A stretch of DNA of 42,368 bases from a virus (taxonomy: Duplodnaviria > Heunggongvirae > Uroviricota > Caudoviricetes), in the IMG/VR virus record IMGVR_UViG_2737471817_000007, positions 1 through 42,368 of that record; one strand, given 5' to 3'. Below the pieces are notes generated by a model. It was given only the letters and a program-made list of their open reading frames with translations, was not told the origin of the DNA and did not search any database. The translations under genes and the position numbers were made by a program. Within the stretch, counting starts at the first letter, position 1. Every line of letters starts with the position of its first letter. Below are positions 2,788 through 24,896 of this stretch, one piece after another.

Positions 2788-3147
2788 CTACTGCTGTTTT
2801 CGATTCAAAATCTGTCGTAAATTACGGAAGTCTTCTTCATTTAACTCATCAAAACTACGAGCGAACGCAATTGCGACTTCACGAGCGTGGCCATTCTTAC
2901 CTGACAAGCTGATCTCTACTGACTGCTGAGAGTCACGAGCTGCACTGATAAGCTTTTCTTTTTGTTTTTCATCCGCATTAAAATAGCTAATGATGCTATC
3001 AAGCACGGGCTTAGTGACCGCCCTTTTACCAGTTTCGATCGCTGAAAGATAAGACGAGGTCATACCCATAGCCTCAGCCATGCTTTTAAGCGTAAGCCCC
3101 AAGTCTATGCGCATTTTTCTTACTGTCTTACCAAACGGCGTTAACAT
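2788..3147 (-). CDS. XRE-family helix-turn-helix transcriptional regulator
   Basis: 119 aa; LTLKSMAEAMGMTSSYLSAIETGKR is a typical XRE HTH. Confidence 0.7.
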   Translation of the reverse strand: MLTPFGKTVRKMRIDLGLTLKSMAEAMGMTSSYLSAIETGKRAVTKPVLDSIISYFNADEKQKEKLISAARDSQQSVEISLSGKNGHAREVAIAFARSFDELNEEDFRNLRQILNRKQQ

Positions 3148-3680: not shown

Positions 3681-4550
<870 letters not shown>

Positions 4551-5582: not shown

Positions 5583-6019
5583 ATGTTTTATAGTCCATCT
5601 TTAAACATTTTTGTGAATCCTGCACTTAAGGATGATTACATTAATGCAAATTCATGGCCAGATGATGCTCTGGCTGTCAGTGATGATGTTTATAATGAAT
5701 TTGCAATCAATACGCCTCCAGATGACAAAATTCGTGTTGCAGGAAAAAATGGATTACCCACATGGCACTAATACCTCCACCATCACATGAAGAACTTATT
5801 CAACAGGCAGAATCAGAAAGGCAATTATTGCTTAATCAGGCCAACGAATACATGAACAGTAAGCAATGGCCCGGTAAAGCCGCTATTGGTCGTCTGAAAG
5901 GTGATGAACTGGCGCAATATAATTTGTGGCTGGATTATCTGGACGCACTGGAGCTGATCGATACTTCCGGTGCGCCAGATATTGAATGGCCTACGCCTCC
6001 GGCAGTTCAGGCCAGATGA
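5583..6019 (+). CDS. Alternative tail-fibre assembly protein (Tfa'), apparently split into two frames near 5762-5771
   Basis: ORFs 5583-5771 and 5762-6019; the second ends with the Tfa signature DTSGAPDIEWP. Confidence 0.4.
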
Positions 6020-6593: not shown

Positions 6594-7393
6594 TATGCAG
6601 CCCTCACGATATATGCAAATGCCAAGTTCCGTGGTCTGGTTTCTTTAATTAAAGAGGAGGCATCAGGTGAACTCACTGATTCAGCACCATTTCTTCCACC
6701 AGTGGTATAAGTAAAAACTCTTTCACTGTTAGACCAGTAATCCACACCAACTGTTTTTGCTGATGAAAAAATGGTTTCATCAGATATAACCTGTTCTATT
6801 CCATACGGGATATTAGTAACTGACCCCACTTTTGTAGGTATTCCATGATTATGAGAAATTACTGCATGCTCTTGATTCGTTAATAAAGTACGACCGCTAT
6901 CCACTCCACGCCCGTCATCCCAGCCACGAATAAACTCACCACGTAAATCAGGCAATTTATTTGTCGGATAAGCCTTTGCCAGTTCCGGGTATTCTTCAGC
7001 AGAAAAAGCGGCACCGTTGCATTTCAGCCAGCCTGTTGGCGGAGTGGCGGAAGGCCACGGAACAGGCACGCCAACGGGTAATGCTGAACCTTCTCCCAAA
7101 CCAAGGTTTTCGAGAGCCGTTTTCACCGTGCCATCCGATTTGATATCGCCAAACGGATTCTTGCGGCTTAACAGCAGCGCACGAAGCGCTGTAAGCAGCT
7201 GGTCATGCCGCCCCTTCTCCAGGCTGGCACCGGATGCCTCCACAACACTGCAAAGTTCCTCCTGCAACATGTCAAAGTAGTCATCATCCAGATCGGTGGC
7301 AGGTGTGCCGGTCTGGGGGTTACCACGGGTAAAACCGTTCTTACCCGCGCCGAACTTATCCTTCTGCGCGGTTTTCGTATCTATACGATGCAT
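6593..7393 (-). CDS. Tail fibre protein (constant N-terminal part plus currently expressed variable C-terminus)
   Basis: 266 aa with the conserved fibre motif [22 protein letters not shown]. Confidence 0.7.
6963..6992. other. Candidate right crossover site inside the tail-fibre gene
   Basis: Inverted partial copy of the 5167-5194 core at the LAKA codons. Confidence 0.35.
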
Positions 7394-7396
7394 GGA

Positions 7397-7981
7397 TTAC
7401 TCCGGATATTTAAAAATTACGTAGGTATGCGACGGGCAGAGTTTGTTAAGCACACACTCGATAACGGTGTCGCCCCATATACGCAGCGCGGAATCACAGG
7501 GATCGCCACATGTCATCCAGGTGGTGTTGGTGGCGGCTGGCATGTTGACCTGCCAGTAATACCGCCATTCCGGCGCATTCACCGCGTCAGTACAGGCCGA
7601 TGAGCAGGTGAACGTGCTTTTGTCGTATCGCGTGATGGTAGCGTCTGGTCTGCCCAGGGCAGCAAGCTGTGCAAGATAAAAATCCTCGTTGATGCCGCCC
7701 GCCAGGTTAACCTTCGCATCCAGCCGTTGCTGACGCTGGCGAAGGGTCTGTGTCCCTGCGGGAATACATTCATCCGGCAGACCGCACAGACGCTCCCAGC
7801 GGTTTATCAGTTCAGTGGTGGTGCGCGGATCCAGCTCCCGCATCAGGGCATCCGCACGCTGATGAACGCGGGTTAATGACGGTGCCGCACCGGCAATCGC
7901 CGGATCGCTGGCTGACCACGCCGGACCGGGGGGCAACAGTGCTGACAACAGACGGATGTAATCATCGTTTGTCACGTCCAT
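7397..7981 (-). CDS. Baseplate/tail protein, Mu gp48-like (DUF2313/YmfQ-like)
   Basis: 194 aa; position and sequence character match Mu-type baseplate modules. Confidence 0.55.
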
Positions 7982-9030
7982 GAAATCGTCCCCAGTACCG
8001 CCAGTTCATTTTTTGCAATGGAGATATTGTCTGCCGGTGCAAGCAACTGATGGCTGTATTCCCCGTTCGCACCGGAAATCGCCTCACTGATACGCGATAC
8101 CTTCAGTTCTCCCTGCGGATAACCATCACGCAGCAGGAACGAACGCAACTCCGCGGTGATGGCAGCCCGTATTTCCGGTGTGTCCGGCGTCACACGGATA
8201 TGAAAATCCACCGTATGTGCCACCGGCCTGAACACATACAAATCAGAGCCTGCCACCGGGGCCAGTGGCTCGATATGTTGTCTTGCCGCCGTTTCCGTTG
8301 ATTCTTCCGGAATGGGATTAATCAGGTCACTGCTGGCAATCATCACACCGACAGTTCCCGTTCCCATCCAGTGACGGTATGTCCATGCGCGGGTAATGCC
8401 GGGCACTTCTTTAGCCCAGACAACATAGTCCCCGTCAGCCCCGCCCTGCGGCGTCCAGTAATACCGCTCAATGACGCGGGCGCGCCACGTTTCCAGCTCT
8501 TCAGTATCAAATCCGCCTGTCAGGGTGTCAGCCACACCGGAAGACGGCAGACCATTCACCGGCGTGACCAGGATTAATGCCGTACCGTCGTCAGCATTAC
8601 CGACCGCACCTGCACTTGAGCAGGCGATCGGCACGCGCAGGACACCACCGGAGCTGGTTGCATCGTCAGTTGTCGTGTACTGCACCAGGTCATCGCGCTG
8701 AATAACACTCCCGGCGGTCACCTTCAGGCCATCGCTGACACCTTCCCAGCGCATATACCCACTGGCAACCGTGGCTCCCTTGCGCGGACACCGTTTCATC
8801 GCAGCATGTCGCGCCAGCCAGGACTCATCGCACAGGTCAGGCAGCATGTTCATTGCCAGATAATCGATGTAACCGTAAACCGTATGCAGCGCCGCCGCAT
8901 ACACCTTTGCCCGCACGTCTTCATCCATGCGCCGGAGCGTGTCGCTGACGTCCAGCCTGGCGAATAAATCGTTACGGAGCATACTAATATTTTCTGCCAG
9001 CGTCGGGCGCTGAAATTCACTGTCCGCCAT
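7972..9030 (-). CDS. Baseplate J-like protein (Mu gp47-like)
   Basis: 352 aa in conserved Mu-type order. Confidence 0.65.
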
Positions 9031-9445
9031 GCGTTATCGCACTCCACAGATCATCAAAAGAAATCATTACCGGTCCGTCACGACGCCAGAGGGTGATACT
9101 GTTACCCAGTTCATTAATCCCGGTGCGGCGGATATCCAGATCAATACGGGACACCACGCCGTCATCAATCATCCATTGCAGGCATTCGCGGATATACCCC
9201 CTTACCGTCTGCACCAGCTGATTGGTCAGTTTGCTGCGCTGAAGCAGCCACAGTCGGGAGCCGTAACGGTCATTCTGTACCGCAGGCCAGGTATCCCCCC
9301 ACCATCCCATCGGGACGTCGGCGTTGTCATCAGGCTCCGCCCGCCGCCAGGTAAACAGGGAAATCACCACGGCGCGGGTCAGCGGATCCAGCGGTGCGCT
9401 GGCGCAGGTGCGTTTACCGTTCACCGTCAGCCACAGTTCCATCAT
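9017..9445 (-). CDS. Baseplate wedge protein (Mu gp46-like)
   Basis: 142 aa; overlaps neighbours as in tail operons. Confidence 0.55.
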   Translation of the reverse strand: MMELWLTVNGKRTCASAPLDPLTRAVVISLFTWRRAEPDDNADVPMGWWGDTWPAVQNDRYGSRLWLLQRSKLTNQLVQTVRGYIRECLQWMIDDGVVSRIDLDIRRTGINELGNSITLWRRDGPVMISFDDLWSAITHGGQ

Positions 9446-9990
9446 GCCTCCATCGCTTTATCAGGTTTGTCGGTGTTACTGCCCTGACCGTTCTCTCTGT
9501 GACGATGCCCGTTATAGGCAAGCCGCATCGCTGACATGGTGGTGCCGCCGGAGTCGCACAGGTCTTTCACCTGTCCTGTCACTTCCAGGTCCATTTCAAA
9601 ACGTGCTTCAGGTGCATTGCGAAACGTGATCGTTTTACCTGCACCGTCCACCACGATCCCCTCCCGGGTCAGCATCACGGACTGCCCCTGATCGTCATAG
9701 ACAGCCACCTCACCCGTCTGCAGCCCTTTCAGGCGGTAGCGCCGGTCCGACACCGTAACAACCACCGCATGAGAACGGTCGCCATCCGGAAACAACACCA
9801 CCGCTTCCGCACCGCTGTTTGCCCTTGCGGTAAAACCGTAGGGTTCAAGATGCTCAACCCCGGCTTTGGGTTCACCGGCAATCAGGGACACATCCACGGT
9901 CTGACATTTCGTGGCGGCACTGATGCTTTTCACCACGGCCCGCCCAATCAGGCCGAGGAGTTGTCGCTGCATGGCTTCAATCGTCCTCAT
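9442..9990 (-). CDS. Baseplate assembly/spike protein (gpV / Mu gp45-like)
   Basis: 182 aa in conserved position. Confidence 0.55.
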   Translation of the reverse strand: MRTIEAMQRQLLGLIGRAVVKSISAATKCQTVDVSLIAGEPKAGVEHLEPYGFTARANSGAEAVVLFPDGDRSHAVVVTVSDRRYRLKGLQTGEVAVYDDQGQSVMLTREGIVVDGAGKTITFRNAPEARFEMDLEVTGQVKDLCDSGGTTMSAMRLAYNGHRHRENGQGSNTDKPDKAMEA

Positions 9991-11069
9991 CAGAACGGAT
10001 CCTCCTGTACTCTGGCTTTTTTCTTTTTCCGCGCGCCGGGGGCTTCGGGTTCAGGCAGATAAGCATCAGGTGGGCCGACACGGATTTCCGTCAGGGTGCC
10101 GTTCTGGTCCTGAGTAAACGTGACTTCCGAGACAAGCAGTTCGGTATTGTCGAAACCACAGACCGGATCGAAGACAATCACCCGCTGGTTGGGCTGCCAC
10201 AGCGTACCGTTACCCTGTCGCCAGCCCTGCACCACATAGGTGGTTTCATCCGTCCGCGCCGCCCGTTGTCGGGCTTCAAAGTCAGCACGCGCAATACAGC
10301 CTGCCCCCGTGGCCTGCCCTGTCTGCCTGATATACATCGGACGGTAACGGGCAATAAATGCGTCCTCTGTGCGGGCCCGCAGCGCGGTGGTGGTGGCCTC
10401 ACCGAAATCATCGTCGTTTCCGGCACGCTGCCCCGCCACCTGGTAAACTGAAAACCGCTCCCGGATACTCTTCTCCGTATCGCAGGAAAGGATGTTTTCC
10501 CCAAGTACCAGCGCGGTATGTGCCCGCGTTGAGCCAATACCGCCAATCACCAGCCTGCCGTGCGGGTCGTCGTAAGCCAGTACCTGCTGCTGACCGAGTA
10601 TTTTGTTGATCACCTCAATCACCGTTTCGCCGTGATCAGGCTGGACGTCAGGAATAACACCCGACGGCGCACCGTTGTTCACCACCTCAATGCCGAAAGG
10701 CGCAGCAAGCGCCTGCGCAATCTGTACCAGCGATCGTCCGTTAAACTGTGTCGGTTCGGCTGCACAGTCAATCAGGTCAGCGGTCAGACTGCGTCCGGCA
10801 ATACCGGTGCTGACCGAACGGGCATCGTAATGAACGGGCGTCGCCTCCACCCAGCCGGTGATCACCAGCTCATCACCAATCAGCACTTCCACTTTTGAAC
10901 CGTTTTTAATGCGCGGCTGAAGCGTGGTGATACCCTCATCTCCCGGCCACTGGCGAGTGATCTCCACACTGAAATCCCGCGCCAGCCGTTCAATACCGGC
11001 ACCGATGCGCACCGATGTCCAGCCATTCCACTCCCGGCCATTTACCCGTAGCGTGACATTGTCGTTCAT
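9990..11069 (-). CDS. Baseplate hub protein (Mu gp44 / P2 gpD-like)
   Basis: 359 aa in conserved position. Confidence 0.55.
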   Translation of the reverse strand: MNDNVTLRVNGREWNGWTSVRIGAGIERLARDFSVEITRQWPGDEGITTLQPRIKNGSKVEVLIGDELVITGWVEATPVHYDARSVSTGIAGRSLTADLIDCAAEPTQFNGRSLVQIAQALAAPFGIEVVNNGAPSGVIPDVQPDHGETVIEVINKILGQQQVLAYDDPHGRLVIGGIGSTRAHTALVLGENILSCDTEKSIRERFSVYQVAGQRAGNDDDFGEATTTALRARTEDAFIARYRPMYIRQTGQATGAGCIARADFEARQRAARTDETTYVVQGWRQGNGTLWQPNQRVIVFDPVCGFDNTELLVSEVTFTQDQNGTLTEIRVGPPDAYLPEPEAPGARKKKKARVQEDPF

Positions 11070-12442
11070 TGCACTGGCACCTTCAGAGGGATCACCGGCA
11101 CAAAGCCGGGATGCGTAATGGCATTACGCCGGATAATGTCCGCGTCACGCGCCGCGTTATCAAACCAGGTCGCCGCCAGCACCAGCGCGGGTAAAACCTC
11201 ATCCGGTGTGCGCTGAATGATCCGTGCAGACTGTTCAAGGCGCGTGTTGATATCCGCATTCAGATCTGCTTTCACCCGGCGCAGCGCCAGAAACAGCGCA
11301 TCACTGGTTGTACGGGACAACTCCTTATCAATTGCCGTATTCAGTGTGTCGCGAATGTCAGTCAGTTCTTCCCACGTCGGCAGGTCAACCGTGTTTTTCA
11401 CCGCCGGTGCATTGTTCAGTGCCGGATGCGTGACGGAAGGCCAGCCAGTGCTCTGCGCGGGTGTTGTTGCCTGCCCCACTGCGGAATTCTGCATCACCGC
11501 GGAAGTTATTGGCGCAGGCAATCGGGTGACGGCATACGCCGCTTCGCTGATTGCGGTCGTACGAAGGGTGCTGGCAACCACGTTACGCTGCTGCGTCGCC
11601 GTGGCGGTGGTTTTACTGTCCGTTTTCCAGACGCCGCGCGGTTGCAGATCGCTGCCGAGGCTGACACCGGAAAGCGTTTTGATCATGGTGACCAGGTCGC
11701 TGGCGTTACCATAAAGGCGTTTCCCGGTACGCCACATTTTCTGCACCTGCTCAACGAAATTTTTGCCTGACGATGGCGGCGGCAGAAGTACCGAGATATC
11801 CCCCTGCAACAGCCTGGCGGCATCCGATACGGCAGAATCCACCACTTTCATCGCATCAGAAACATACCCCAGCATTATGCTGGCATTACCGATAACGTCG
11901 TTCTGCACGAAATCCGCCACACCATCGATACTGAAACCGCTGAAGCTGTCACTGATGCAGTCATCCAGTGCAGAACAGGATGACATCAGCGTCTGCGCCG
12001 TCGCCGCACCTGATGTGGGGTAAGAGAGTTCTCCTGCTTCGACAAACTTCAGGTCAAAGCGGACAATACGTCCTTCACTTTTCGATGTGCTGACCCGAAC
12101 TTCCCCGTCAACACAGACTTTCAGCTCACCATATGTCGGGTGGACAAGCGTGCCGGGACCGGGTTTATTCAGCGCTTCAATCAGGCGATCGCGCTGGTCA
12201 AAGCAGTCATCTCCCACCACATAAGCTGTGATGGACGGGCGGAAAGTGACTTTTCCCAGATCTTCGGTATAGGGCTTGTCGCGGTTCGGGTATTCATGTG
12301 TTTCCACACGGCGACCGGTTCCCGCACTTTCTTCTTCAACCTTAAACGGCACGCTGCGAAATGACGCATCCTGAAGCCTGTCTTTCCACGTCATATAAGT
12401 CCCATATTTATTATCAGTAGTAATATTTACTGGTAATGCCAT
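11066..12442 (-). CDS. DNA circulation protein-like tail protein (Mu N / gp43-like)
   Basis: 458 aa between tape measure and baseplate hub. Confidence 0.55.
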   Translation of the reverse strand: MALPVNITTDNKYGTYMTWKDRLQDASFRSVPFKVEEESAGTGRRVETHEYPNRDKPYTEDLGKVTFRPSITAYVVGDDCFDQRDRLIEALNKPGPGTLVHPTYGELKVCVDGEVRVSTSKSEGRIVRFDLKFVEAGELSYPTSGAATAQTLMSSCSALDDCISDSFSGFSIDGVADFVQNDVIGNASIMLGYVSDAMKVVDSAVSDAARLLQGDISVLLPPPSSGKNFVEQVQKMWRTGKRLYGNASDLVTMIKTLSGVSLGSDLQPRGVWKTDSKTTATATQQRNVVASTLRTTAISEAAYAVTRLPAPITSAVMQNSAVGQATTPAQSTGWPSVTHPALNNAPAVKNTVDLPTWEELTDIRDTLNTAIDKELSRTTSDALFLALRRVKADLNADINTRLEQSARIIQRTPDEVLPALVLAATWFDNAARDADIIRRNAITHPGFVPVIPLKVPVQ

Positions 12443-12504
12443 AATTTGTAGTGGTAGCCATTACCATTTGTAACTATATAAATTATTAGCATTAAGGTGA
12501 TAAC

Positions 12505-12951
12505 ATGAAGAAATTATTAAAATGGATTTTATATATTTTCATCGGGTTGGTGATTATTGGATATTTTGCAGGCAATAACGATAAAGGCTCTAATTCTTCA
12601 TACTCATCCGATACGGAAGCTGCGGCACCGCAAAAAGAAATCTACAACACTACTGCTCGACAGCTGTTTAAAGAGTATGAAGAAAATGAAGTCGCTACCG
12701 ATGAACAGTTAAAAGGTAAATTAATCGCCGTTAGAGGTATCGTACAATCCATTGATAAGGACTTTACTGACTCTATAATTATTAAATTCAGAACTGAAAA
12801 TGAATTCATGCCAGCAAGAATGGAGATGCAAGACTCTGAAAAATCAACAGCTGCTGCTCTTAAAAAAGGAGAACAAGTAACTGTTATTTGCGAAAAAATG
12901 TCCAGAATTGTCGGCTCCCCATCAGGCCGAAATTGCGTGTTCGCACAGTAA
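12505..12951 (+). CDS. Membrane-anchored small protein with a possible OB-fold-like domain; low-GC moron inside the tail operon
   Basis: 148 aa; N-terminal hydrophobic helix (MKKLLKWILYIFIGLVIIGYFAG); opposite strand to all flanking tail genes; AT-rich. Confidence 0.55.
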   Translation: MKKLLKWILYIFIGLVIIGYFAGNNDKGSNSSYSSDTEAAAPQKEIYNTTARQLFKEYEENEVATDEQLKGKLIAVRGIVQSIDKDFTDSIIIKFRTENEFMPARMEMQDSEKSTAAALKKGEQVTVICEKMSRIVGSPSGRNCVFAQ

Positions 12952-12983
12952 GTTCAGGGGGGGGCGACCCTCCCTGTTCGTCT

Positions 12984-14816
12984 TTACCTAAATCTGGTGT
13001 ACCCAACATCGTGATTAATATCAATGCCACTGGAACGTGTTTCCGTAACCCGCATACCTGGTGGCATATTCATAAATGAAACCTTGATCTCGCCATCAAC
13101 TTTTGGCGCGATAGCTTTGTTAATCATGAAGGGATTCGGGCCTGTGGCATCGGAGGCGTTGTTTGACTGAGCCGGATCTACCGCCGGATAAGGTGTGTAT
13201 CCCCGCGTCGGTATTCCCGTCCCATAAGCATCATAAGCACCCGCGCCCCACTGCGCAGAGTTAATGGCATCGACCGTGTCACCGGAACTGTCGGTAAACC
13301 ACTCAATAATTGGCTTCAGCTTGTCCCACATATCCTGAAACCACTTAACAACCGGCCCCCAGTTATTGATCACCATCCCCAGCGGCGACCAGGCAAAAAC
13401 TTTCTTAAGGAGTTCCCAGCCAGCCTCAAAATAAGGACCAATGGTTTCCCAGAGTTTCTTAAAATAAGGTCCGACAACATCCCAGTTAGTGATAATTAAT
13501 CCCGCAGCCAGGGCTATCGCCGTCGCAATCATGCCAATCGGCGTCATCGACATGATCCTGCTGACAATACTGATGGCACCGCCAACGCCCATCAATCCCA
13601 GTTTCAGAATCGCAAGACCGGCAGCAAGCCCGACGACGCCGCGAATAACCCGGGGATTTTCATCCGCAAACTTCGTGAATTTTTCCCCCAACTCCCCCAG
13701 CCATTGCGTGATATTTTTAGCGTCACCAGAAAATGCGCCGCCAATAGCTGCAAGACCGTTAGTTGCGGTCCCCGTCATTGCCTCCCACAGGTTGGACAGC
13801 GTACCAAGCTGAGCCTGAACACGTTTATTCAGGCTGGCCTGTTTATTCATCTTCTGCTGGATCTGATCGTAGCCATCCTTTCCTTTATCGATCAGGGCAT
13901 TGACCACCTGAAGGGTTTCGGCATCATCACCAAATATTGCCTTAAGTACGCCTGTTCGCTTAACGTCGGTCAGTTTTCGCAACTTTGCCAGTTGCCTGAA
14001 CATGTTATCAAGACCGCCAAAACTTCCTTTGCCGTCAGTAAAATCGAGCTGTACCCCGAGTTTCTGGCGGGCCATGACTTTATTGACGTCCCTGATTTTC
14101 TTAACACTTAATCCGGACTGGATAACTTTTCGCAGGGCATTACCTGCCGACTCCCCGTTCATCCCCATCTGATCCATCATGACGCTGATGGGGGCAAGGC
14201 TCTGTGCAGCCTGAAGACCGTCCTTGTTCACCATCTTCAGAACAGAACTGGTTTTAGTGAAGAAGGACAACATGTTGGTATCGTCAACGCCCAGATAAAA
14301 CGCCTTCTGGATAGTGTCGAACAGCCCCATCATGTCTTCTGACGCCGTTCCGGTAGCATCCTGCATCTTTGCAGCAAACTCAGCAGCCGCTTCCGGTGTT
14401 TTTTTCAGTTGTACCGCAAGATAAGCTGTCGCTTTACCCACACCACCCAGAATGTTTTCTGCCGGGATCCCCTGACGCACCAGCATCTGCATCATGTTCT
14501 GGAAATCAGCCGTTGTACCGGGTAGCTGGTTACCCAGGCCAATAGCCAGTTTATTGATGTCCTGAAAGCTCTTTCCAACCTCGCCGTTCGCATCCATCAT
14601 GGCGACTTTCAGCCCGGTAGCGGCGTTTTCCTGATCGGCATAAGATTTCAGGGAAAGCGTCAGCCCCGCTGCCAGTCCTCCACCAAGCGCCAGCCCACCC
14701 TGTGACGCTTCTTCCGCCTGGCGTTTAAATCCCCGGATTTTCTTTTGCATTTTCGACAGCGCGGGAGAAAGCCTGTCGACACCGGTGATCAACGCCTTAA
14801 GCTCAAATTCAGCCAT
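12984..14816 (-). CDS. Tail tape measure protein
   Basis: 610 aa, Ala/Gly-rich with hydrophobic segments, downstream of the frameshifted chaperone pair. Confidence 0.75.
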   Translation of the reverse strand: MAEFELKALITGVDRLSPALSKMQKKIRGFKRQAEEASQGGLALGGGLAAGLTLSLKSYADQENAATGLKVAMMDANGEVGKSFQDINKLAIGLGNQLPGTTADFQNMMQMLVRQGIPAENILGGVGKATAYLAVQLKKTPEAAAEFAAKMQDATGTASEDMMGLFDTIQKAFYLGVDDTNMLSFFTKTSSVLKMVNKDGLQAAQSLAPISVMMDQMGMNGESAGNALRKVIQSGLSVKKIRDVNKVMARQKLGVQLDFTDGKGSFGGLDNMFRQLAKLRKLTDVKRTGVLKAIFGDDAETLQVVNALIDKGKDGYDQIQQKMNKQASLNKRVQAQLGTLSNLWEAMTGTATNGLAAIGGAFSGDAKNITQWLGELGEKFTKFADENPRVIRGVVGLAAGLAILKLGLMGVGGAISIVSRIMSMTPIGMIATAIALAAGLIITNWDVVGPYFKKLWETIGPYFEAGWELLKKVFAWSPLGMVINNWGPVVKWFQDMWDKLKPIIEWFTDSSGDTVDAINSAQWGAGAYDAYGTGIPTRGYTPYPAVDPAQSNNASDATGPNPFMINKAIAPKVDGEIKVSFMNMPPGMRVTETRSSGIDINHDVGYTRFR

Positions 14817-14991
14817 GTGTGCGTTTCTCCTGCTCTATCCTGTTTGCCTGACTGACCAGCAAGGGAATTTCACTGATCGGCATATTCAGCAATTCGAAGG
14901 GATTAATGCGCCAGTAGCTGGCGCAGTCAAAGAAGCGATCAGTGAGGTATTCAGCCGTCAGGCCTGGAGGAAAAAACCAGCCACAAGCCAC
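14809..14991 (-). CDS. Frameshift extension of the tail assembly chaperone (-1 frame)
   Basis: Overlaps the 3' end of 14958-15227; slippery TTTTTTC on the minus strand (plus-strand gaaaaaa about 14970-14976); ends at the tape measure start. Confidence 0.5.
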   Translation of the reverse strand: MACGWFFPPGLTAEYLTDRFFDCASYWRINPFELLNMPISEIPLLVSQANRIEQEKRTHG

Positions 14992-15227
14992 GCCGCTGCA
15001 TTCAGGTCTGCCGGAGACATCTGGTCGACAGAGCTTTGCGGCACTTTCGCCAGCCGCACAATGTATTTCGACACCACATGCGCCAGAAGTCTGACGGACT
15101 CATCCTGATTCATCTGGTAGGGATACCCCAGCTCGCGGACATCTTTCCCGGTGGGCTCATCAAACTCCAGTACGGAGAGTGTCTCGCCATGAGCGGTAAT
15201 CGGTTTCTTTAACTCAAGCTCTTTCAT
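14958..15227 (-). CDS. Tail assembly chaperone (lambda G / P2 E analogue)
   Basis: 89 aa between tube and tape measure, with an overlapping -1 frame ORF. Confidence 0.55.
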   Translation of the reverse strand: MKELELKKPITAHGETLSVLEFDEPTGKDVRELGYPYQMNQDESVRLLAHVVSKYIVRLAKVPQSSVDQMSPADLNAAAWLVAGFFLQA

Positions 15228-15583
15228 TACTGGTAATCCCCTTCTTCACCGTGGAACTCAAGATCGACCGTGCCTTCTTCGGCATTATGGTTCGCTTCGC
15301 CGTGCAGCCAGGCAGACGACAGTACATAGACCTGACCGTTCGCCAGCTCGGCAGTGATGGTCATCTCATCAGACGAGGTGATTTTGCTCACCGGAAAATT
15401 CTTCGGCACCTTGAAGGTCCCTTTGACATAAGGCGCACGGTGAGTTTCCTTGCGGTCCACTGAACCGTCCAGGCCGATGATGTCATCATTGACCGTCCTG
15501 TTCATGGGCACCTCAATGCCGCCGGTCAGCGATAGCTGCTGACCGTCAATTTTGAAATAACAGGTTCCCCCGATACGGGCCAT
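15227..15583 (-). CDS. Tail tube protein (Mu-type)
   Basis: 118 aa immediately downstream of the sheath gene. Confidence 0.6.
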   Translation of the reverse strand: MARIGGTCYFKIDGQQLSLTGGIEVPMNRTVNDDIIGLDGSVDRKETHRAPYVKGTFKVPKNFPVSKITSSDEMTITAELANGQVYVLSSAWLHGEANHNAEEGTVDLEFHGEEGDYQ

Positions 15584-17079
15584 TATGCGGACTCCTCTGA
15601 ATACTGAAGACGGAACTGGTTAACCACGGCAAAGACACGCAACTGGTTAACATAGTCAGGCGGGAACAGCGTGTTCAGGCGGTTCGGATCGCTGGCATCA
15701 CGCTCCACAACCAGGTACTGCTTAAACAGTTCGTAGTTTTCCACGATCCCCGCACGCTCAAGCTGACGGTAGGTTGCCAGCAGTTCCCCTTTGATCACCG
15801 CCGGGGTGACAATCGCCTGACCGGGACCAAAGCGGGTACCGTCACTGGCAAGCTTGTGACGCCCGTACTTACTGGTAATGACAGATTTCAGTTTGCGCAG
15901 TACATACGCGCTGGTATGCAGAGTCTCACTGTCTAGGTAGCTGTTATCCGCAACCCCGTAAGCGTTTTTCCTGTACGTGGTGACATCACGCTGAATGCGC
16001 AGTACCCCGCTTTCGACATACGCCGTTGCCACGCCATGAGACAGCAGGGTCTGTTGTTCGGTCATCGTGAACCGTTTCCCCTTCGGCGCAGGCAGCATAC
16101 CCACCAGCTCACCGGTCTGCGTGGGACGTGCCGGATCGTTGCGAATAAACACCGCTGCGCGGGCGGTACGGCTTGCCGCCAGTTCGTCGGCAGGCGTCTG
16201 GGTCTCTTTTTCGTACCCCGCCAGGGTAATGTGCTGCTGATTAAACTGGTCACCTGCGGTCACCAGTTCTGACAGCGTGCCGATCTTTGCCGTATACACA
16301 TGACCATACAGCTGACGCGCATAGCTCCAGCGACCGCTGGTATCGTTCATCTCGGTCACCAGCGTGTTAACGGAGGCCGTGTCGTTGAACGGCAGGCCGA
16401 TATAATCAAACGGCTCATCCGCCATTGCAGCCACCGCGCCGGTGAGAACCGGAGCACCCGTACCGGCGGTACCCGTCGCCACGGCAATCTGTACGCCCGC
16501 TGGCAGCACTTCGCCCCCACCAAAGCCGTAGTAATTGAGGCTGACAGGAATTTCATTCCCGCAAAGCCCCTTATGACGCGCGGTCAGTGTGACCACGCCT
16601 GCCGAAGATGAAGCCGTAAACGGCAGGGCCGGAACGGCATTGATGGCATCTTTGATACTGCTGGCAATCGTCGTGACGTTATCGCCGTTGGTCACCGGTG
16701 CCTGCACGCGGGTACGTCCCACATAAACATTCACCGTGCCGGTTTCGGTTGCCGCCCCGGTCACCGTCAGCGTAACCGTTGCCGCCGCGCCTGTGGCTTC
16801 CGGAACGGCAATCACATACAGCTCACCAAACGGGTCGGTCTGGCGATAAGCCTCGACCATACGCGCCAGCTGACTTCCCGCACCACAAATCTGGCGGGCA
16901 TAGTCTGCCGACGGCATCAGCACCAGACTGTTGGCAACAATCTCTGCACCGTTATTGGCATGACCAATCAGCAGCGATGCTCCGCTGTCCTGTGCAGTAT
17001 TCGCCGCCTGGTTATCCATTTCCGCATAAAACAGCGGAACCAGCGTATTCGACGGAATGGTGTTAAAGCTTATCGTCAT
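15583..17079 (-). CDS. Contractile tail sheath protein
   Basis: 498 aa; size, position and composition typical of Mu/P2-type sheath. Confidence 0.75.
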   Translation of the reverse strand: MTISFNTIPSNTLVPLFYAEMDNQAANTAQDSGASLLIGHANNGAEIVANSLVLMPSADYARQICGAGSQLARMVEAYRQTDPFGELYVIAVPEATGAAATVTLTVTGAATETGTVNVYVGRTRVQAPVTNGDNVTTIASSIKDAINAVPALPFTASSSAGVVTLTARHKGLCGNEIPVSLNYYGFGGGEVLPAGVQIAVATGTAGTGAPVLTGAVAAMADEPFDYIGLPFNDTASVNTLVTEMNDTSGRWSYARQLYGHVYTAKIGTLSELVTAGDQFNQQHITLAGYEKETQTPADELAASRTARAAVFIRNDPARPTQTGELVGMLPAPKGKRFTMTEQQTLLSHGVATAYVESGVLRIQRDVTTYRKNAYGVADNSYLDSETLHTSAYVLRKLKSVITSKYGRHKLASDGTRFGPGQAIVTPAVIKGELLATYRQLERAGIVENYELFKQYLVVERDASDPNRLNTLFPPDYVNQLRVFAVVNQFRLQYSEESA

Positions 17080-17241
17080 CGGTGTTCACCTTTTTATTCA
17101 CGCGCCGGATATCACCCGCTGCTTCACGGCGCAGCCAGTAGTTGTTCTCGTCAACATTTCGCCCTTCGGCGGGCAAAAGGTCGCCGCGGGCAGGGTCAGG
17201 AACTGACCGCCCTTTAACAGGTTTGACAAACATGAGGATCC

Positions 17242-17802
17242 TCAGGAAGGAAGGGTTATTTCGGTGTGATGTTCGATATCGCCGTCAGGCCCGTTACCGG
17301 GCTCGAGATAATCAACATCAATCGCCAGCGTTTGCAGTTCATCCAGACTGTTCAGATCATCCTGCTGGCGGGTATCGTCTTCAGTCAGCTCGCTGATGAC
17401 CGAAAAATCGAACTGATAAATCAGTTCATGACGATTCAGATCCAGCAGCGTGCCGCCGTCATAGGTAATCGGGTTACCGCACGCTTCCGGGTTCCAGCCC
17501 AGCAGGGCCTTAAAGAGCATCTGCCGGACATCGTCCACCACATCATACGAGGCAAACTGACCGCGCTCATCACGCCCGTTACTCAGTATGACAACCACGG
17601 AGAAGCCCTCTTTCAGCTCCTGCCAGTAGTCGGTCTGGCTTTTGTTTTCTCCCGGAGAGTCATCACCCGGTACCACATACGCCGCCGGGAGTCTCAGCTT
17701 TCCGACCTCCGGCAGATTTTTGAACTGTGCCGCGCCTGCCACCCGGTTTTCAAAATACGGGCAGCGGGCACGCAGCGCAGCAATAACAGGCGTCAGTTTC
17801 AT
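17242..17802 (-). CDS. Tail completion / neck protein (Mu gp37-like)
   Basis: 186 aa between the head-tail joining genes and the sheath. Confidence 0.4.
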   Translation of the reverse strand: MKLTPVIAALRARCPYFENRVAGAAQFKNLPEVGKLRLPAAYVVPGDDSPGENKSQTDYWQELKEGFSVVVILSNGRDERGQFASYDVVDDVRQMLFKALLGWNPEACGNPITYDGGTLLDLNRHELIYQFDFSVISELTEDDTRQQDDLNSLDELQTLAIDVDYLEPGNGPDGDIEHHTEITLPS

Positions 17803-18305
17803 CTGTGTCGTCGCTCCGGCTTCAGTGATTTACGCAATTCCCGCGCCAGAAAATAGCGTGTCCAGCTGCGGTTCTTTTCAAGAGTTTCCACCATGAAGTT
17901 ATTACGTGGAGCCAGTCGCCAGCCGCTGCCACCGGATGCACCACGATGATGACTACGACGACGTTTTGCTCCTCCCCGGACACCAAAAAACAGAAACGCC
18001 GGATAGAAGTCACCAGAGATCATCCGGTTCCCCTTCCCGTTGCGCTGGTTAGGGGCAATGCGTGTCATAAAACCGGCTCGCTTTTTACTGGCTCTCGGCA
18101 CCATATAACCAATCGAACGAGCCAGGCGTCCGGTCTGATAACCGGGGTTTTCACCCGGTGCCGACCGCGCACGGCGCATCACCAGCCGACGGGCATCACG
18201 CATATGACGCTGCCCAATCGTGACAAACGCCCGCCGGACACGGGCGCGGTTAAAGCGCATCTCGGCGGGCTGCTGAACATCAACGTGAAAAAAGGGAGTC
18301 GCCAT
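17799..18305 (-). CDS. Virion morphogenesis / head-tail joining protein (HK97 gp10-like)
   Basis: 168 aa, basic, in connector module. Confidence 0.4.
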   Translation of the reverse strand: MATPFFHVDVQQPAEMRFNRARVRRAFVTIGQRHMRDARRLVMRRARSAPGENPGYQTGRLARSIGYMVPRASKKRAGFMTRIAPNQRNGKGNRMISGDFYPAFLFFGVRGGAKRRRSHHRGASGGSGWRLAPRNNFMVETLEKNRSWTRYFLARELRKSLKPERRHR

Positions 18306-18690
18306 TGCTGCCTCCGTGACTCTGCCTACATTCGCCCAGCTCCGTACACTCCAGCAGCAGAAAGCGCCGCGCCCCGTTCAGATCACGCTGACGTTTCACC
18401 CGGTACACACTGTCATCACAGACCACCTCATAATCAGCAGTGATCCCCCGGCGGTAACGAATGGTGATGTAATGGGTGATGGCGTCCCCGGTCTGCGCGG
18501 TTTCCTGCCAGGTGGTGGCACTGGTCTGGATAACCTTCGCCCATGTCCGGAACGTAACCGGGTATTGAGGCTCCACGCCAAAGTTATCCGCGGGCATATC
18601 CACCCGCTGGCGGATCAGGACGCGTTTATTCAGTTCACCGGGGTCCGGCAGAATGTAGGTTGCGCTGGTCTGCGCCTGACGAATTTTCAT
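18280..18690 (-). CDS. Head closure / head-tail adaptor protein
   Basis: 136 aa in connector module. Confidence 0.45.
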   Translation of the reverse strand: MKIRQAQTSATYILPDPGELNKRVLIRQRVDMPADNFGVEPQYPVTFRTWAKVIQTSATTWQETAQTGDAITHYITIRYRRGITADYEVVCDDSVYRVKRQRDLNGARRFLLLECTELGECRQSHGGSNGDSLFSR

Positions 18691-19010
18691 TGCGGAAAGT
18701 ACCTGTACGGGCCGACAAGCCAGCCAAAACTCTGCGGCATGTCGAGTTTCTCCACTTCCGTAACCGACGAGCGGTTTTCGTAAAAATGGCTGATAAGCAT
18801 CAGCATCCCCAGACGAATATCATCCGGCAGGTGCAGCCCGTCCGGATCGCTGTCCGGAATGGTTTCATCCGGTGCATAGAGCTTCCGGTTCAGATACGTT
18901 TCCGTCCGCTTTTGTGCCGCACAGGCCAGCAGTTGCAGATGGCGGTCATCAGCATCGAAATCCTCATCCAGCCGGAGTTGGGCTTTAATCTCTTCCATTG
19001 TCAGAAGCAT
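18687..19010 (-). CDS. Head-tail connector protein (gp6-like)
   Basis: 107 aa; acidic N-terminal region as in gp6-like connectors. Confidence 0.5.
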   Translation of the reverse strand: MLLTMEEIKAQLRLDEDFDADDRHLQLLACAAQKRTETYLNRKLYAPDETIPDSDPDGLHLPDDIRLGMLMLISHFYENRSSVTEVEKLDMPQSFGWLVGPYRYFPQ

Positions 19011-19012
19011 AC

Positions 19013-19213
19013 TCAGCCCTCTTTACTGGTCGTGGCTTTTTTCTCTTTTGTCGCTTTACTGCTTTTTGCACTGGTTCCGCGCTCTGCTAACCCGGCCTGA
19101 AGTGCAATCTCCTGCACCCGGGCAGGAAGCGCCCCGTCGTCATACTCACCGGCCCGAATGACCTCAACACGCATACCGTCCGGTGACCATTTCAGATCTT
19201 GTTTCAGGATCAT
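19013..19213 (-). CDS. Small hypothetical head-module protein
   Basis: 66-aa ORF packed between capsid and connector genes. Confidence 0.35.
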   Translation of the reverse strand: MILKQDLKWSPDGMRVEVIRAGEYDDGALPARVQEIALQAGLAERGTSAKSSKATKEKKATTSKEG

Positions 19214-19262
19214 GATTCTTCACCCGTCAGAACAGGGGGCGCGGTTCCGCGCCCCTGAGTGA

Positions 19263-20468
19263 TTACGCCGCTGCAATCTTCAGCAGTTTGATGGCCTGCG
19301 AATCGACCAGCATCCCGCCGGTGCGCTTGGTGGTATAAAAACCGACAAACGGTTTATTGGTGTACGGGTCACGCAGAATGCGGGTGCCGATACGGTCAAC
19401 GATGGTGTAACCCCGTTTGAAGTTACCAAATGCAATGGCTTTCGCATCAGCGGCGATATCCGGCATCTGTTCGTTTTCAGCGATACCGTAACCCGCCAGA
19501 GAGGACGGCTGCCCCAGCTCCAGCCCCGGACGCCACAGATAGTTACCCTCGCTGTCTTTCAGCAGACGGATGGCAAACAGGCTGTTGTTGTTCATCATGA
19601 ACTTCGCGCCAGTGCGGTGTGCCTTACGCAACGTGTAAATCAGTTTGATAATGGCGTCTGCGGTCACCGCCGTCGCTTCGCCGGATACAATATGCTGAAG
19701 TTTGCCGAACGCCCGGACCTTATCGGTTTCATCAGTGGATTCATACGCCAGGAACCCTTTCGGCTTCTTGGTGCCATCGCCTGAGGTAAAGGCAATTTCT
19801 TCCTGTTCGGCAAATTCGGTTGCCAGCTCGCTGTTGATCCATGCTTCCACGTTGAAAAAGGCATCATCCAGCATTTTCTGGGTGGCCTGCGGGTTACCGT
19901 AGATTTCCCCCATGAAAGGTTCAATCAGGCCCAGTTTTGAGGTGGCAGTCTGGGAGCGCGCGTCAGTCTCGCCAACCCATCCGGAAGCCGTGCCGCCCAG
20001 ATTCACCAGTTTTTTGTAGTCGGAACCACCAATGGTGATCACCGTGGCTTCCTGACGCATCACCACTTCATCTTTCAGCAAGGTCAGAATGTTGCGATCC
20101 AGCGCTTCCGGCACGGCATAGCCGCCGTCTTCATCGGTGCCCACCTGTAATGCCTTGCGCTCCAGATCGCGCAGACCATCTTCACGGCCTTTACGCAGGA
20201 AGCCCACAAACGCTTCTTTATGCTCGGTGGTCAGTTTATTTTGCGCACCACCTGCCGGACGTTTCAGCTCAAGCAGCTCTTTTTCAAGATCGCTTTTGAG
20301 GTTTTCCAGCTCGCTGAGTTTTCCGTTCAGGGTTTCCACCTGCCCGGCAAGCTTGCCTTTTTCCTGCTCAATCGCATCCACGCGCTTGTCGTTCTTTGCT
20401 TTGAAGTCGTCAAACTTCTGCTGCAGCTCCTGCGCGACCTGTTCGACATCTTTAATATCAACCGCCAT
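19263..20468 (-). CDS. Major capsid protein (HK97 fold, with N-terminal coiled-coil delta region)
   Basis: 401 aa directly downstream of the prohead protease. Confidence 0.75.
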   Translation of the reverse strand: MAVDIKDVEQVAQELQQKFDDFKAKNDKRVDAIEQEKGKLAGQVETLNGKLSELENLKSDLEKELLELKRPAGGAQNKLTTEHKEAFVGFLRKGREDGLRDLERKALQVGTDEDGGYAVPEALDRNILTLLKDEVVMRQEATVITIGGSDYKKLVNLGGTASGWVGETDARSQTATSKLGLIEPFMGEIYGNPQATQKMLDDAFFNVEAWINSELATEFAEQEEIAFTSGDGTKKPKGFLAYESTDETDKVRAFGKLQHIVSGEATAVTADAIIKLIYTLRKAHRTGAKFMMNNNSLFAIRLLKDSEGNYLWRPGLELGQPSSLAGYGIAENEQMPDIAADAKAIAFGNFKRGYTIVDRIGTRILRDPYTNKPFVGFYTTKRTGGMLVDSQAIKLLKIAAA

Positions 20469-20482
20469 CGTATTTCTCCTGA

Positions 20483-21169
20483 TTAGAAGTTCAGATTTTT
20501 CAGTGCATTCAGTGCAGAGCCCACATCCTCAGCGTCGCGCAGGGACAGTGCGCCATAGCCCCCGGCCATGAATGCTTTGGCCTGGGTACGGGAGAGTCCG
20601 ACATCACGCAGGACTCTTTCGATTTTTTTCTGTTCGGGGATTTCCCCGCGGGCCAGCGCGTTCTTGACGTCGCTGATCCGCGCCTCGTCGTTAGACGGAA
20701 ACGTCACCAGACTGACTTCCCAGAGGTCGATTTCTTTCAGCAGAAAGGCTTCTTTGCTCCGGTCGTATTCCCAGTCTTTCAGGACGTACCCAATAGAAAG
20801 GCCGGTTAACGAACCGGCCTTCATATGTGCATGTGCGCGTTTTGCCAGGGGATCATCATCAATAAGCAACCGACCCCTGACATAAAGCCCGACATCGTCT
20901 TCCTTCATTTCGGTGTAAACACCGATGGGCTCATCCATGCGGTGCTGCCAGAGCAGCGCAGGTAACGCTTTTCTGTCACTCCACGCCCGCAGGGAAGCAG
21001 CAAATGCCCCGGACATCACCACATCATCGTGGCTGTCCTTTACACCAAAGACGGAGCCATACCCTTCAAACTCACCGGAGTCACTGACAGATTTCAGACT
21101 CAGCGGTACATCAAGACGTTGTTTCGTCTGCATTGGCGTTATCCTTCTGCTTACCGGCTTTACTGCCAT
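20483..21169 (-). CDS. Prohead maturation protease (HK97 family)
   Basis: 228 aa between portal and capsid genes. Confidence 0.65.
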   Translation of the reverse strand: MAVKPVSRRITPMQTKQRLDVPLSLKSVSDSGEFEGYGSVFGVKDSHDDVVMSGAFAASLRAWSDRKALPALLWQHRMDEPIGVYTEMKEDDVGLYVRGRLLIDDDPLAKRAHAHMKAGSLTGLSIGYVLKDWEYDRSKEAFLLKEIDLWEVSLVTFPSNDEARISDVKNALARGEIPEQKKIERVLRDVGLSRTQAKAFMAGGYGALSLRDAEDVGSALNALKNLNF

Positions 21170-22352
21170 CGGAGGGTTTCGTGGTCATGTTCATCGGGGT
21201 GAGATAGACATCACCACCGGGACGCGGATTCATATCTTCCAGGTCGCGGCAGTCATTAGGAGAGTAAATTCCCCAGTTGATCCCGGTGGCGTAGGCTTCA
21301 AAACGGGACTTCATATCCCCGCGCAGTAACGCCCCGGCGTTAAATTTGGCGTAATAAACGCCCTGCTTACTTTTTCGTACCAGTCCGGTGTTGATCCGCT
21401 GCTCAATGCGGGTCAGATACGGCACCAGTGAATAGTTGATAAATCCCAGCCCCAGCTCTTCGATATTGTTGAAGGTGGCGCGATCGGTGTTCTGCACCAT
21501 GTGCAATGGCACCCGGAACAGACGACAGATTTCTTCAAGCTGAAACTTGCGGGTTTCCAGAAACTGGCTGTCCTCGGCGTTCAGCGCCATCGACTTCCAG
21601 TCCAGCCCCATCTCAAGGATCATCGGGCGGTGAGCATTGCCAAGCCCGGTGTGACGCTCCTCAAAATCTTTCTTCAGGCGCTCATAAGCCTGATCCGACA
21701 GCGTCTGCTCTGTACGCAACACACCGGACGTCACCGCACCATTGCTGAACAGTCTGGCCCCGTGCTCTTCGGTCGCAGCTGCCAGCGATATTGCCTCGCG
21801 GGCATAGGCGATGGGATTCAGTCCCACCAGACCGTCCAGCGTCAGCGTGCGCACATGCCAGATATCTTCCTGGCTCAGTACATCCGTGGAGCCGTCCGGG
21901 AATGTGACCTGATAGACCGGCTCCCAGCTACTGTTAAGCTTCGGTACCACACAACCGGGATCGACGGGCAGCAGTTCAGCCACTTCGCCAAATGCTTTCA
22001 CTTTGTAGGCGTAAAAGTTGCCCCGCAGGCACAGACAGGTGACCACCAGCTCCCAGAACTCCTGCGGCGTCATATAGCCATTGGGATGCGTGGAGATCAG
22101 CTTATGCAGACGTTCGCCGGTGGCTCTCTGTTTCAGGCTGCCGTTCAGGTGATACAGATTGCAGGGCAACATCCCGACCGACTCTGCCAGCACCCTGACG
22201 CAGGAAAAAACCGCCGTCAGTCGCATGGCCCGCTGGCTGCTGATCTGCTTTCCGGTATAGGTGTCGTAGGACAACCCGATGGCATCCGCCAGCTCTGCTG
22301 GCGTGGTCACCGGTGCGTCACTTTTTCGTTGAAATAATCCCGAAAAGAACAC
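21111..22352 (-). CDS. Portal protein (HK97 family)
   Basis: 413 aa downstream of the large terminase. Confidence 0.7.
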   Translation of the reverse strand: MFFSGLFQRKSDAPVTTPAELADAIGLSYDTYTGKQISSQRAMRLTAVFSCVRVLAESVGMLPCNLYHLNGSLKQRATGERLHKLISTHPNGYMTPQEFWELVVTCLCLRGNFYAYKVKAFGEVAELLPVDPGCVVPKLNSSWEPVYQVTFPDGSTDVLSQEDIWHVRTLTLDGLVGLNPIAYAREAISLAAATEEHGARLFSNGAVTSGVLRTEQTLSDQAYERLKKDFEERHTGLGNAHRPMILEMGLDWKSMALNAEDSQFLETRKFQLEEICRLFRVPLHMVQNTDRATFNNIEELGLGFINYSLVPYLTRIEQRINTGLVRKSKQGVYYAKFNAGALLRGDMKSRFEAYATGINWGIYSPNDCRDLEDMNPRPGGDVYLTPMNMTTKPSDGSKAGKQKDNANADETTS

Positions 22353-22534
22353 TATTTACCTCCACCAACAGACAGCTGTGTACGGTCGAGATATCGCGCC
22401 ACCAGCCACGACCAGAACAGGCACAACGCCCCGGCAACAACAAACCCCGCCGGGGGATAAATCAGCCAGGCACCATACGCCAGCAAAAGCGCCCCCAGCA
22501 CGCCTACCAGAGGCGCGAGAATCAGCATGATCAT
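22352..22534 (-). CDS. Small membrane protein, hypothetical
   Basis: 60 aa, strongly hydrophobic, between terminase and portal. Confidence 0.35.
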
Positions 22535-22545
22535 AATTACCTCAG

Positions 22546-24779: not shown

Positions 24780-24896
24780 TCCTGGTTAAATTTCATTTTT
24801 CGCGGGTATAAAAAAACGATGGGGCGGGCAGTCCGGAAGGCGCGCGGTCGCAGAGATTTGACCTCCCCCTCCCCAGTCTGATGATGACATTAATTA

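Follow-up and report, generated by a model that had tools for sequence, protein, structure and literature searches.

An antisense cargo gene in the tail operon of an SfV-type Escherichia coli prophage encodes a predicted membrane-anchored OB-fold protein, a candidate superinfection exclusion factor related to Sie2009

We analysed a window of 42,368 nt (IMG/VR virus record IMGVR_UViG_2737471817_000007; all coordinates refer to it) containing a temperate phage of the SfV/SfII/SfI type integrated in E. coli; its head is HK97-like, and its tail is contractile and resembles that of Mu. Between the genes for the tape measure protein (TMP) and a Mu N/gp43-like baseplate protein of this prophage lies a cargo cassette of 585 bp and 37% GC (12399-12983), which contains a single coding sequence, with an ATG start, for a 148-aa Sie2009-like PF12869 OB-fold membrane protein (12505-12951, plus strand). 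We hold with high confidence that this is an accessory membrane protein of the PF12869/PHROG 8545 family rather than a part of the tail. We give a probability of roughly 0.55 to its being an exclusion protein, that is, an inner-membrane protein expressed in the lysogen that would block genome entry of superinfecting phages.

In the mechanism that we propose, a self-contained moron, comprising a putative promoter, a ribosome-binding site, the 148-aa open reading frame (ORF) and a hairpin terminator, would have recombined in antisense orientation into the TMP-gp43/N junction. Its product would be a type II inner-membrane protein, in which a probably disulfide-stabilised OB domain would be held in the periplasm by a single signal-anchor helix, to which a flexible linker of ~22 residues would tether it. 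The protein would be made in the lysogen, and superinfecting phages would be stopped after adsorption, at the moment when their tail tip or tape measure engages the cytoplasmic membrane.

Family, fold and predicted topology of the 148-aa protein

Profile comparisons place the protein in the same family as Sie2009, the product of orf2 of Lactococcus phage Tuc2009. The window protein matched PF12869 (tRNA_anti-like) over positions 5-131 of the 146 in the model (69.5 bits, for a curated gathering threshold of 23.5; E = 2.9e-19) and PHROG 8545, labelled 'superinfection exclusion Sie-like', with an E value of 1.5e-49 over residues 1-146; a precomputed PF12869 match was present in 89 of 90 homologues, all but the weakest. 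Sie2009, in turn, scored 1.7e-79 on phrog_8545 and also passed the threshold of PF12869, with 43 bits (3.5e-11). Comparison of a 44-sequence alignment of the enterobacterial family with Sie2009 by hhalign gave a probability of 97.5% (E = 6.5e-12, 130 columns), with aligned columns running from the anchor through the linker to the OB core motif Y..N..A.D..KGK…G.V.S. Both are small proteins, of 148 aa in the window and 173 aa for Sie2009, with a predicted hydrophobic N-terminal anchor; Sie2009 and the related Sie proteins of lactococcal prophages are likewise prophage-borne accessory proteins in which the anchor is followed by a low-complexity linker and an OB domain. The initial annotation, made from the letters of the sequence, had guessed at a superinfection-exclusion or injection-blocking factor, and this homology backs the guess.

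Sie2009 blocks DNA injection without preventing adsorption, and the copy from phage LC3, which is identical to it, produced broad resistance when over-expressed (PMC7693887; PMC10883804). It has been suggested to touch distal components of the tail or to mask a trigger of injection (PMC7693887); for the analogous blocks exerted by Ltp and HK97 gp15, escape has been mapped to the genes for the tape measure and the tail tube (PMC10883804). The window protein departs from Sie2009 in that its host is Gram-negative, so that its domain would be periplasmic whereas that of Sie2009 lies on the cell surface, and in an extra C-terminal segment carrying two invariant Cys residues; moreover, its gene occupies an antisense position in a slot of the tail operon, unlike sie2009, which lies between int and the repressor gene. 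HK97 gp15, P22 SieA, T4 Imm and TP-J34 Ltp are functional analogues, in that they are phage membrane or envelope proteins blocking genome entry after adsorption, but we detected no sequence or fold relationship to any of these four; SieA and Imm have a polytopic or otherwise different build, and the lipoprotein Ltp contains helical repeat domains.

The suspicion in the initial annotation of an OB-fold-like domain agreed with an AlphaFold2 (AF2) model built on the 44-sequence alignment, whose overall predicted local distance difference test score (pLDDT) was 87. The model comprises a helix at residues 2-22 and, from residue 45, a confidently modelled OB barrel that bears an N-terminal helical cap and has an OB-typical order of strands and helices; block means of pLDDT were 87 for residues 41-50 and 95-98 from residue 51 to the C-terminus. 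In Foldseek searches, the five top matches in the PDB were all chains of 3F1Z (best E = 5.9e-5; TM score 0.63, normalised to the target), and next came anticodon-binding domains of aminoacyl-tRNA synthetases and OB domains of RPA/Stn1. Of the close matches, 3F1Z alone is a solved structure. The barrel, its cap and the likeness to 3F1Z are those of PF12869. Because a sequence search of the PDB yielded nothing meaningful (only spurious matches to spike proteins, with E above 0.05), the relationship to 3F1Z is visible at the fold level only. Among the matches in BFVD are proteins of phages named 'tRNA_anti-like' and one named 'Host cell surface-exposed lipoprotein', and a match to NCBIfam SpoIIIAG was rejected, being below threshold.

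The OB domain (residues 45-148; 12637-12948, plus strand), predicted to be periplasmic, contains the conserved motifs Y-x-x-NEVA-x-DE and QSIDKDFTD, and the invariant columns of the alignment are L54, Y58, N61, E62, V63, A64, D66, G78, K85, G122, C129, R134 and C144. It is joined to the anchor by a disordered tether rich in Ser, Asn and Thr (residues 23-44; 12571-12636, plus strand), with pLDDT below 50 at residues 25-37 and a length and sequence that differ among homologues.

As for the membrane anchor claimed for the N-terminus, it was borne out as a prediction: hydropathy analysis identified a single hydrophobic segment at about residues 4-22 (KD19 = 2.16), that is, a signal-anchor transmembrane (TM) helix (12514-12570, plus strand) around whose start lie K2, K3 and K6 and which forms a helix in the AF2 model. 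The flanks of this helix carry three K/R on the N-terminal side, and one K/R plus two D/E on the C-terminal side. The anchor is probably uncleaved, because there is neither a lipobox Cys nor a small residue at -3. Lipoprotein, as some NCBI names have it, was rejected for the window protein, which has no Cys before residue 129; some homologues do have a lipobox (ISGC, LTAC) in place of the anchor, and others a zinc ribbon before the TM helix. The sole Cys residues, C129 and C144, both invariant and both in the C-terminal domain, probably form a disulfide within the OB domain, which is acidic (isoelectric point, pI, 5.1-5.6). From the flank charges, the lipobox and zinc-ribbon variants, the Cys pair, the lipoprotein nature of the 3F1Z protein and the extracellular location of the OB domain of TcdC, we infer a type II topology (N-in/C-out) with the OB domain in the periplasm.

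This topology argues against a cytoplasmic role in nucleic-acid binding, which is what an abortive infection mechanism like that of AbiP or PdpSau would entail, with the OB domain binding phage nucleic acid and causing cell death or replication arrest. Such a mechanism has in its favour that AbiP and PdpSau, which act by abortive infection, are themselves membrane-anchored proteins with OB-like domains, and that both the Pfam name and the structural neighbours among aminoacyl-tRNA synthetases and RPA suggest nucleic-acid binding. Nevertheless, the positive-inside rule, the lipobox and zinc-ribbon variants, the Cys pair and the acidic pI all favour, as a prediction, a periplasmic domain rather than a cytoplasmic one, the OB domain of TcdC is extracellular, and PADLOC returned no match, so that we consider abortive infection highly improbable. 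A periplasmic domain on a flexible tether would also fit exclusion at the level of the receptor or of adsorption, as with Cor or T5 Llp, whereby the domain would inactivate an uptake component of the outer membrane or one spanning the periplasm, and those homologues that are true lipoproteins could reach the outer membrane. The window protein itself, however, is predicted to retain its anchor in the inner membrane without cleavage, its tether is no longer than about 22 residues, and Sie2009 leaves adsorption intact while blocking injection; a block to adsorption thus appears improbable to us.

Two relatives, the 3F1Z protein and TcdC, bear on a further alternative. The protein of 3F1Z, KPN03535, is a putative lipoprotein of Klebsiella pneumoniae, an exported envelope protein with a variant OB fold; it shares 17-20% identity with the window protein, from which it differs by its lipobox anchor, its pI of 9.4 and its chromosomal gene. 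That gene adjoins one for a CpxP-like protein, and the authors of the structure suggested an NlpE-like role. TcdC of Clostridioides difficile, with a proposed role in toxin regulation, is likewise anchored in the membrane by its N-terminus and ends in an OB fold, which matches PF12869 by HHpred and was located experimentally outside the cell. In TcdC, a coiled-coil dimerisation helix separates anchor and OB domain, whereas the model of the window protein lacks such a helix and has in its place the linker of about 22 disordered residues (pLDDT below 50); direct Pfam and PHROG scans with the window protein do not detect TcdC. Homologues of TcdC in phages of Lactobacillus and Leuconostoc sit between cI and int, and were read as regulators in the TcdC paper.

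The gene might be a factor of lysogenic conversion that acts in the envelope to the benefit of the host and is unrelated to exclusion, either through Cpx/NlpE-like signalling or by binding glycans or peptidoglycan. Besides the neighbourhood and suggested role of 3F1Z, this alternative is favoured by the presence of TcdC, with the same TM and OB build, in a pathogenicity locus and with no known anti-phage role, by homologues in non-prophage chromosomal DNA of Pantoea (see below), and by the size of the family, 7776 clusters at 50% identity (E ≤ 1e-3), which makes several functions probable. Conversely, the closest homologue characterised experimentally is an exclusion protein, phage-borne copies cluster 3' of CI repressor genes with a few beside defence-type genes, and no data back envelope signalling for PF12869 proteins. 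We therefore regard an envelope role as possible but rather unlikely.

An AT-rich cassette in a variable slot between two tail genes

The ORF at 12505-12951 occurs exactly as the initial annotation had it, and so does its setting as a lone plus-strand gene, wedged between the tape measure and gp43-like genes amid minus-strand structural genes. Positions 6882-25223 align collinearly (97.4% identity) with a prophage of E. coli L725 that is annotated in RefSeq, where the corresponding product, 'OB-fold protein' WP_000734912.1, is encoded by the sole plus-strand gene in the approximately 19 kb from the tail-fibre genes to the HNH/terminase genes. The right flank is the TMP gene (12984-14816, minus strand; PF10145), and the left flank is the gene for the Mu N/gp43-like DNA-circulation (baseplate) protein (11066-12394, minus strand; PF07157, 5.6e-33). 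The true start of the latter is the ATG at 12394 (translation MTWKDRLQD), as annotated also in SfV, SKA5 and L725. We discarded as an artefact the mechanical ORF of 458 aa starting at 12442, whose 16 extra codons (12395-12442) lie inside the cassette and over the putative -10 element. The Shine-Dalgarno sequence of gp43 is also located within the cassette, and therefore each cassette supplies it.

The insert is as AT-rich as had been noted. GC is 0.371 for the ORF and 0.373 for the insert, as compared with 0.566 and 0.512 for the left and right 2-kb flanks; in bins of 400 nt, positions 12401-12800 have a GC of 0.33, with 0.53-0.60 to the left and 0.47-0.52 to the right. GC at third codon positions is 0.338 for the ORF, whereas the tape measure gene has 0.561 and the gp43-like gene 0.607. 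The cassette shares this deviant composition with the morons of lambdoid and HK97-like phages (the concept of Hendrix and Juhala), along with a terminator of its own and a position between conserved genes, and it may also have its own promoter. Unlike typical morons, it is antisense to the late operon, and its slot holds at least two unrelated types of cargo together with deeply diverged alleles.

Comparison with related phages exposed the boundaries of the insertion. SfV, SfII and SfI match a 4-kb segment of the tail region at 97-98% identity, in two pieces; homology to SfV, SfII and SKA5 ends at 12398, 4 nt upstream of the gp43 start, and restarts at 12985-12997, at the TMP stop codon. In SfV and SfII, TMP and gp43 are separated by a gap of ~60 nt with a rho-independent terminator. 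Phage SKA5 carries at the same junction an unrelated, AT-rich gene on the minus strand (L002:1986-2498; phrog_8976), whose 170-aa product has a signal-peptide-like N-terminus and gave no match to Pfam or PADLOC. Of 5426 complete E. coli genomes, 74 contain the cassette at ≥99% identity, 7 contain an allele of 71% identity and 85 contain SKA5-type cargo; short stretches of the flanking tail module match in 1048. Being present or absent between near-identical phage genomes, with sharp breakpoints, a deviant GC and its own terminator, the insertion is moron-like, as had been proposed. The empty site in SfV, SfII and SfI and the alternative cargo in SKA5 indicate that this is a cargo cassette in a recombination hotspot and not a tail gene. 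The initial annotation had named, as the finding that would speak against it, homologues universally present at this position as a tail component; three phages lack the gene and SKA5 has other cargo there. We therefore ruled out a tail component, the more so as the gene lies on the strand opposite to the late operon.

The cassette may be equipped for its own expression. A ribosome-binding site, AAGGTGA (12494-12500, plus strand), read from the sequence, precedes the ATG by 4 nt, and AGGTGAT is kept in the allele of locus L005. In an alignment of three cassettes, in which the synonymous sites of the coding part are saturated, the upstream regions share a single conserved block: TGcCATAAT in the window, TGcTATAAA and TGcGATAAA in the others. 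We read this block by eye as a putative extended -10 element (12437-12445, plus strand), paired with a weak -35, TAGTAA (about 12418-12423, plus strand), and predicting a transcription start site near 12452. At the other end there is a terminator-like hairpin, CAGGGGGGGG-CGAC-CCTCCCTG followed by TTCGTCTTTA (12955-12986, plus strand), which abuts the TMP stop codon. A terminator scan found its stem (12955-12976) to consist of 9 bp, seven of them GC pairs, directly 3' of the stop codon and before a T-rich tail, with a folding energy for the RNA hairpin of -19.8 kcal/mol (z = -2.4). The GGGAGGG/CCCTCCC stem is kept in the alleles of loci L005 and L013, both with saturated synonymous sites in the coding part. 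Within the ORF, 12752-12779 (plus strand) forms a near-consensus sigma-70 site (TTGATA, 16 nt, TATAAT; 11 of 12 matches), which may be an artefact of AT-richness or a source of antisense transcription into the 3' end of the TMP gene.

Divergent alleles show purifying selection and indicate that the ORF is not a chance one, since pN between them is 0.11-0.25 and pS is 0.68-0.89, with dN/dS of at most about 0.1. The core of the flanking TMP is 100% identical at the protein level, and therefore the alleles were exchanged by recombination instead of diverging in place. This constraint bears on two alternatives, a hitch-hiker that is neutral or decaying and an accessory of the tail or of its assembly, neither of which would have a role in the lysogen. 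Copies with deletions, a frameshift or an IS1 insertion, and a promoter that is not called by consensus, would be expected for a hitch-hiker. Against this, dN/dS remains low across alleles with saturated synonymous sites, the promoter-like block and the hairpin are conserved, SfV, SfII and SfI lack the gene and yet are functional phages, and its strand is opposite to that of the late operon. Either version is, in our judgement, very unlikely. The disrupted copies include one frameshifted in a run of A close to its 3' end, giving a 161-aa product (P0002), and an insertion of IS1A in the 71%-identical allele of E. coli CX12 (hit H52).

The end of the TMP gene beside the slot is itself variable. 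Over ~500 aa, TMP is 100% identical to those of SfV, SfII, SKA5 and locus L005, but its last 60-110 aa are 82-86% identical to SfV and 40-52% to L005; per block of 50 aa, the comparison with SfV gave ten blocks at 100%, followed by 98, 86 and 82%. This mosaic, hypervariable segment (about 12984-13310, minus strand) spans the last 60-110 codons. An identical cassette occurs beside TMP C-terminal variants of 93-100% identity, and the main C-terminal class of TMP freely accompanies an empty slot, the OB cassette or SKA5-type cargo. Since the same class is found with all three states, co-adaptation between the cassette and the TMP C-terminus is unsupported within it. OB alleles are carried by loci L005, L013 and L039, and only deeply diverged OB alleles accompany deeply diverged TMP ends. 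The pattern looks like mosaicism at the junction rather than strict co-adaptation.

Relatives of the gene and the case for exclusion

The same slot holds alleles of 71-73% identity, likewise antisense, in a second prophage of E. coli and in one of Buttiauxella. A relative sits in this slot in 25 of 80 viral contigs, always antisense and with a GC of about 0.37-0.41 as compared with 0.55 for its flanks; IMG/VR, incidentally, counts as viral some contigs that encode alleles of 61-65% identity, similar in divergence to the Pantoea homologue described below. In the remaining 55 contigs, the two genes upstream encode mainly regulators of the types HTH_3 (22), HTH_31 (15), Phage_CI_repr (12), Phage_CI_C (9) and CII (4), and the two downstream genes mainly P2 gpD (12) and gpU (8); defence-type genes (AAA_15/AAA_21, OLD-like TOPRIM, SIR2) lie downstream in about 4-5 of these 55 loci. 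The P2-like Burkholderia phage Carl1 has its homologue in third place in the immunity-repressor operon, ahead of a terminator. Klebsiella phage ST405-OXA48phi1.2 encodes a version with zinc ribbon, TM helix and OB domain as a lone antisense gene in its baseplate operon (L010:4632-5300); the protein, QBP08214, belongs to PF12869 and is annotated as 'hydrogenase maduration factor'. As this phage is unrelated to ours, it is an independent occurrence of the same layout. A Serratia homologue is located at a prophage edge, near a gene for an O-antigen-type acyltransferase.

Some relatives are built differently. BFVD entry A0A8S5U313 (352 aa) has an OB domain and the annotation 'host cell surface-exposed lipoprotein', and proteins P0096, P0110, P0141 and others contain two to five tandem OB repeats, which hints at modular surface-exclusion proteins.

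The exclusion function, as put forward here, has to be weighed against several observations. Identity to Sie2009 is only ~26%, the Cys-bearing C-terminal strands are unaligned, and function may not have been kept. Sie2009 belongs to the lysogeny module, between integrase and repressor, whereas in the window prophage the gene sits between two tail genes, outside any lysogeny module, despite the many relatives located next to and downstream of CI repressors. A scan for consensus sigma-70 promoters, which needs a match at -35, called no -35/-10 pair upstream of the gene, and the promoter is proposed from conservation. About 20 of the 74 E. coli carriers show partial matches only, and a 143-bp deletion removes the -10 element, the ribosome-binding site, the ATG and the TM helix in loci L031-L035 (around 5990-6010) and in similar E. 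coli hits; the partial and deleted copies mean that maintenance is not universal. A Pantoea homologue of 65% identity (L006-L008:8001-8480) is found in a variable region of the chromosome, with no phage genes within 8 kb, and is flanked by yebY-copCD on one side and by genes for a WapI-like immunity protein and IraP on the other; the family members TcdC and the 3F1Z protein are likewise without a known phage link. The window protein had no match in PADLOC (PADLOC-DB v2) at E ≤ 0.1. Finally, our literature searches found no phenotype study of this protein or of any Gram-negative member, and a 2024 review of superinfection exclusion names no enterobacterial PF12869 member.

On the other side of the balance stand the homology to Sie2009, the neighbourhood of CI repressors in many relatives and the presence in the window prophage of a known defence gene, PD-T4-3, and we retain exclusion as the function that we would assign. 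A much bolder extension would make membrane-tethered PF12869 OB proteins one widespread class of injection blockers in temperate phages of both Gram-positive and Gram-negative bacteria, with TcdC as a domesticated member, the E. coli protein acting in the periplasm on the TMP C-terminus or the hub of phages with contractile tails of the Mu type, and the slot and TMP end engaged in a local arms race; we consider this speculative and doubtful.

If the protein does act in exclusion, the lactococcal Sie2009 family would gain its first characterised counterpart from Gram-negative bacteria, and E. coli and Shigella would offer a tractable model for the way in which a small OB domain on a tether prevents genome entry; TcdC could then be reframed. 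A functional assignment would also spread widely, because members of the family are usually labelled 'OB-fold protein', 'tRNA_anti-like' or 'putative lipoprotein', and genes of this kind bear on host range in phage therapy and on competition among prophages in E. coli and Shigella. As it stands, both the kind of cargo and its place are expected, and phage-family databases already suggest the function: PHROG labels the family 'Sie-like', and RefSeq names the exact protein 'OB-fold protein'. We found no paper stating that Sie2009, PF12869/3F1Z and TcdC share one architecture.

Other genes of note in the window

The PD-T4-3 gene (3726-4550, plus strand) adjoins the tail-fibre/invertase end of the prophage and encodes a GIY-YIG (LEM-3-like) protein, which matched the PADLOC model PD-T4-3 with an E value of 2.6e-140. 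Another region, which differs from the L725 prophage, contains two minus-strand genes, at 2258-2779 and 2788-3147, for a pair consisting of a helix-turn-helix protein and an M78/IrrE peptidase, CapH/CapP-like (E = 3.6e-10 and 6e-11). Beside this pair lies a very AT-rich ORF of 262 aa (673-1461, plus strand; GC 0.32-0.35) with only a weak match to HNH_5, which could be a regulated defence or toxin gene.

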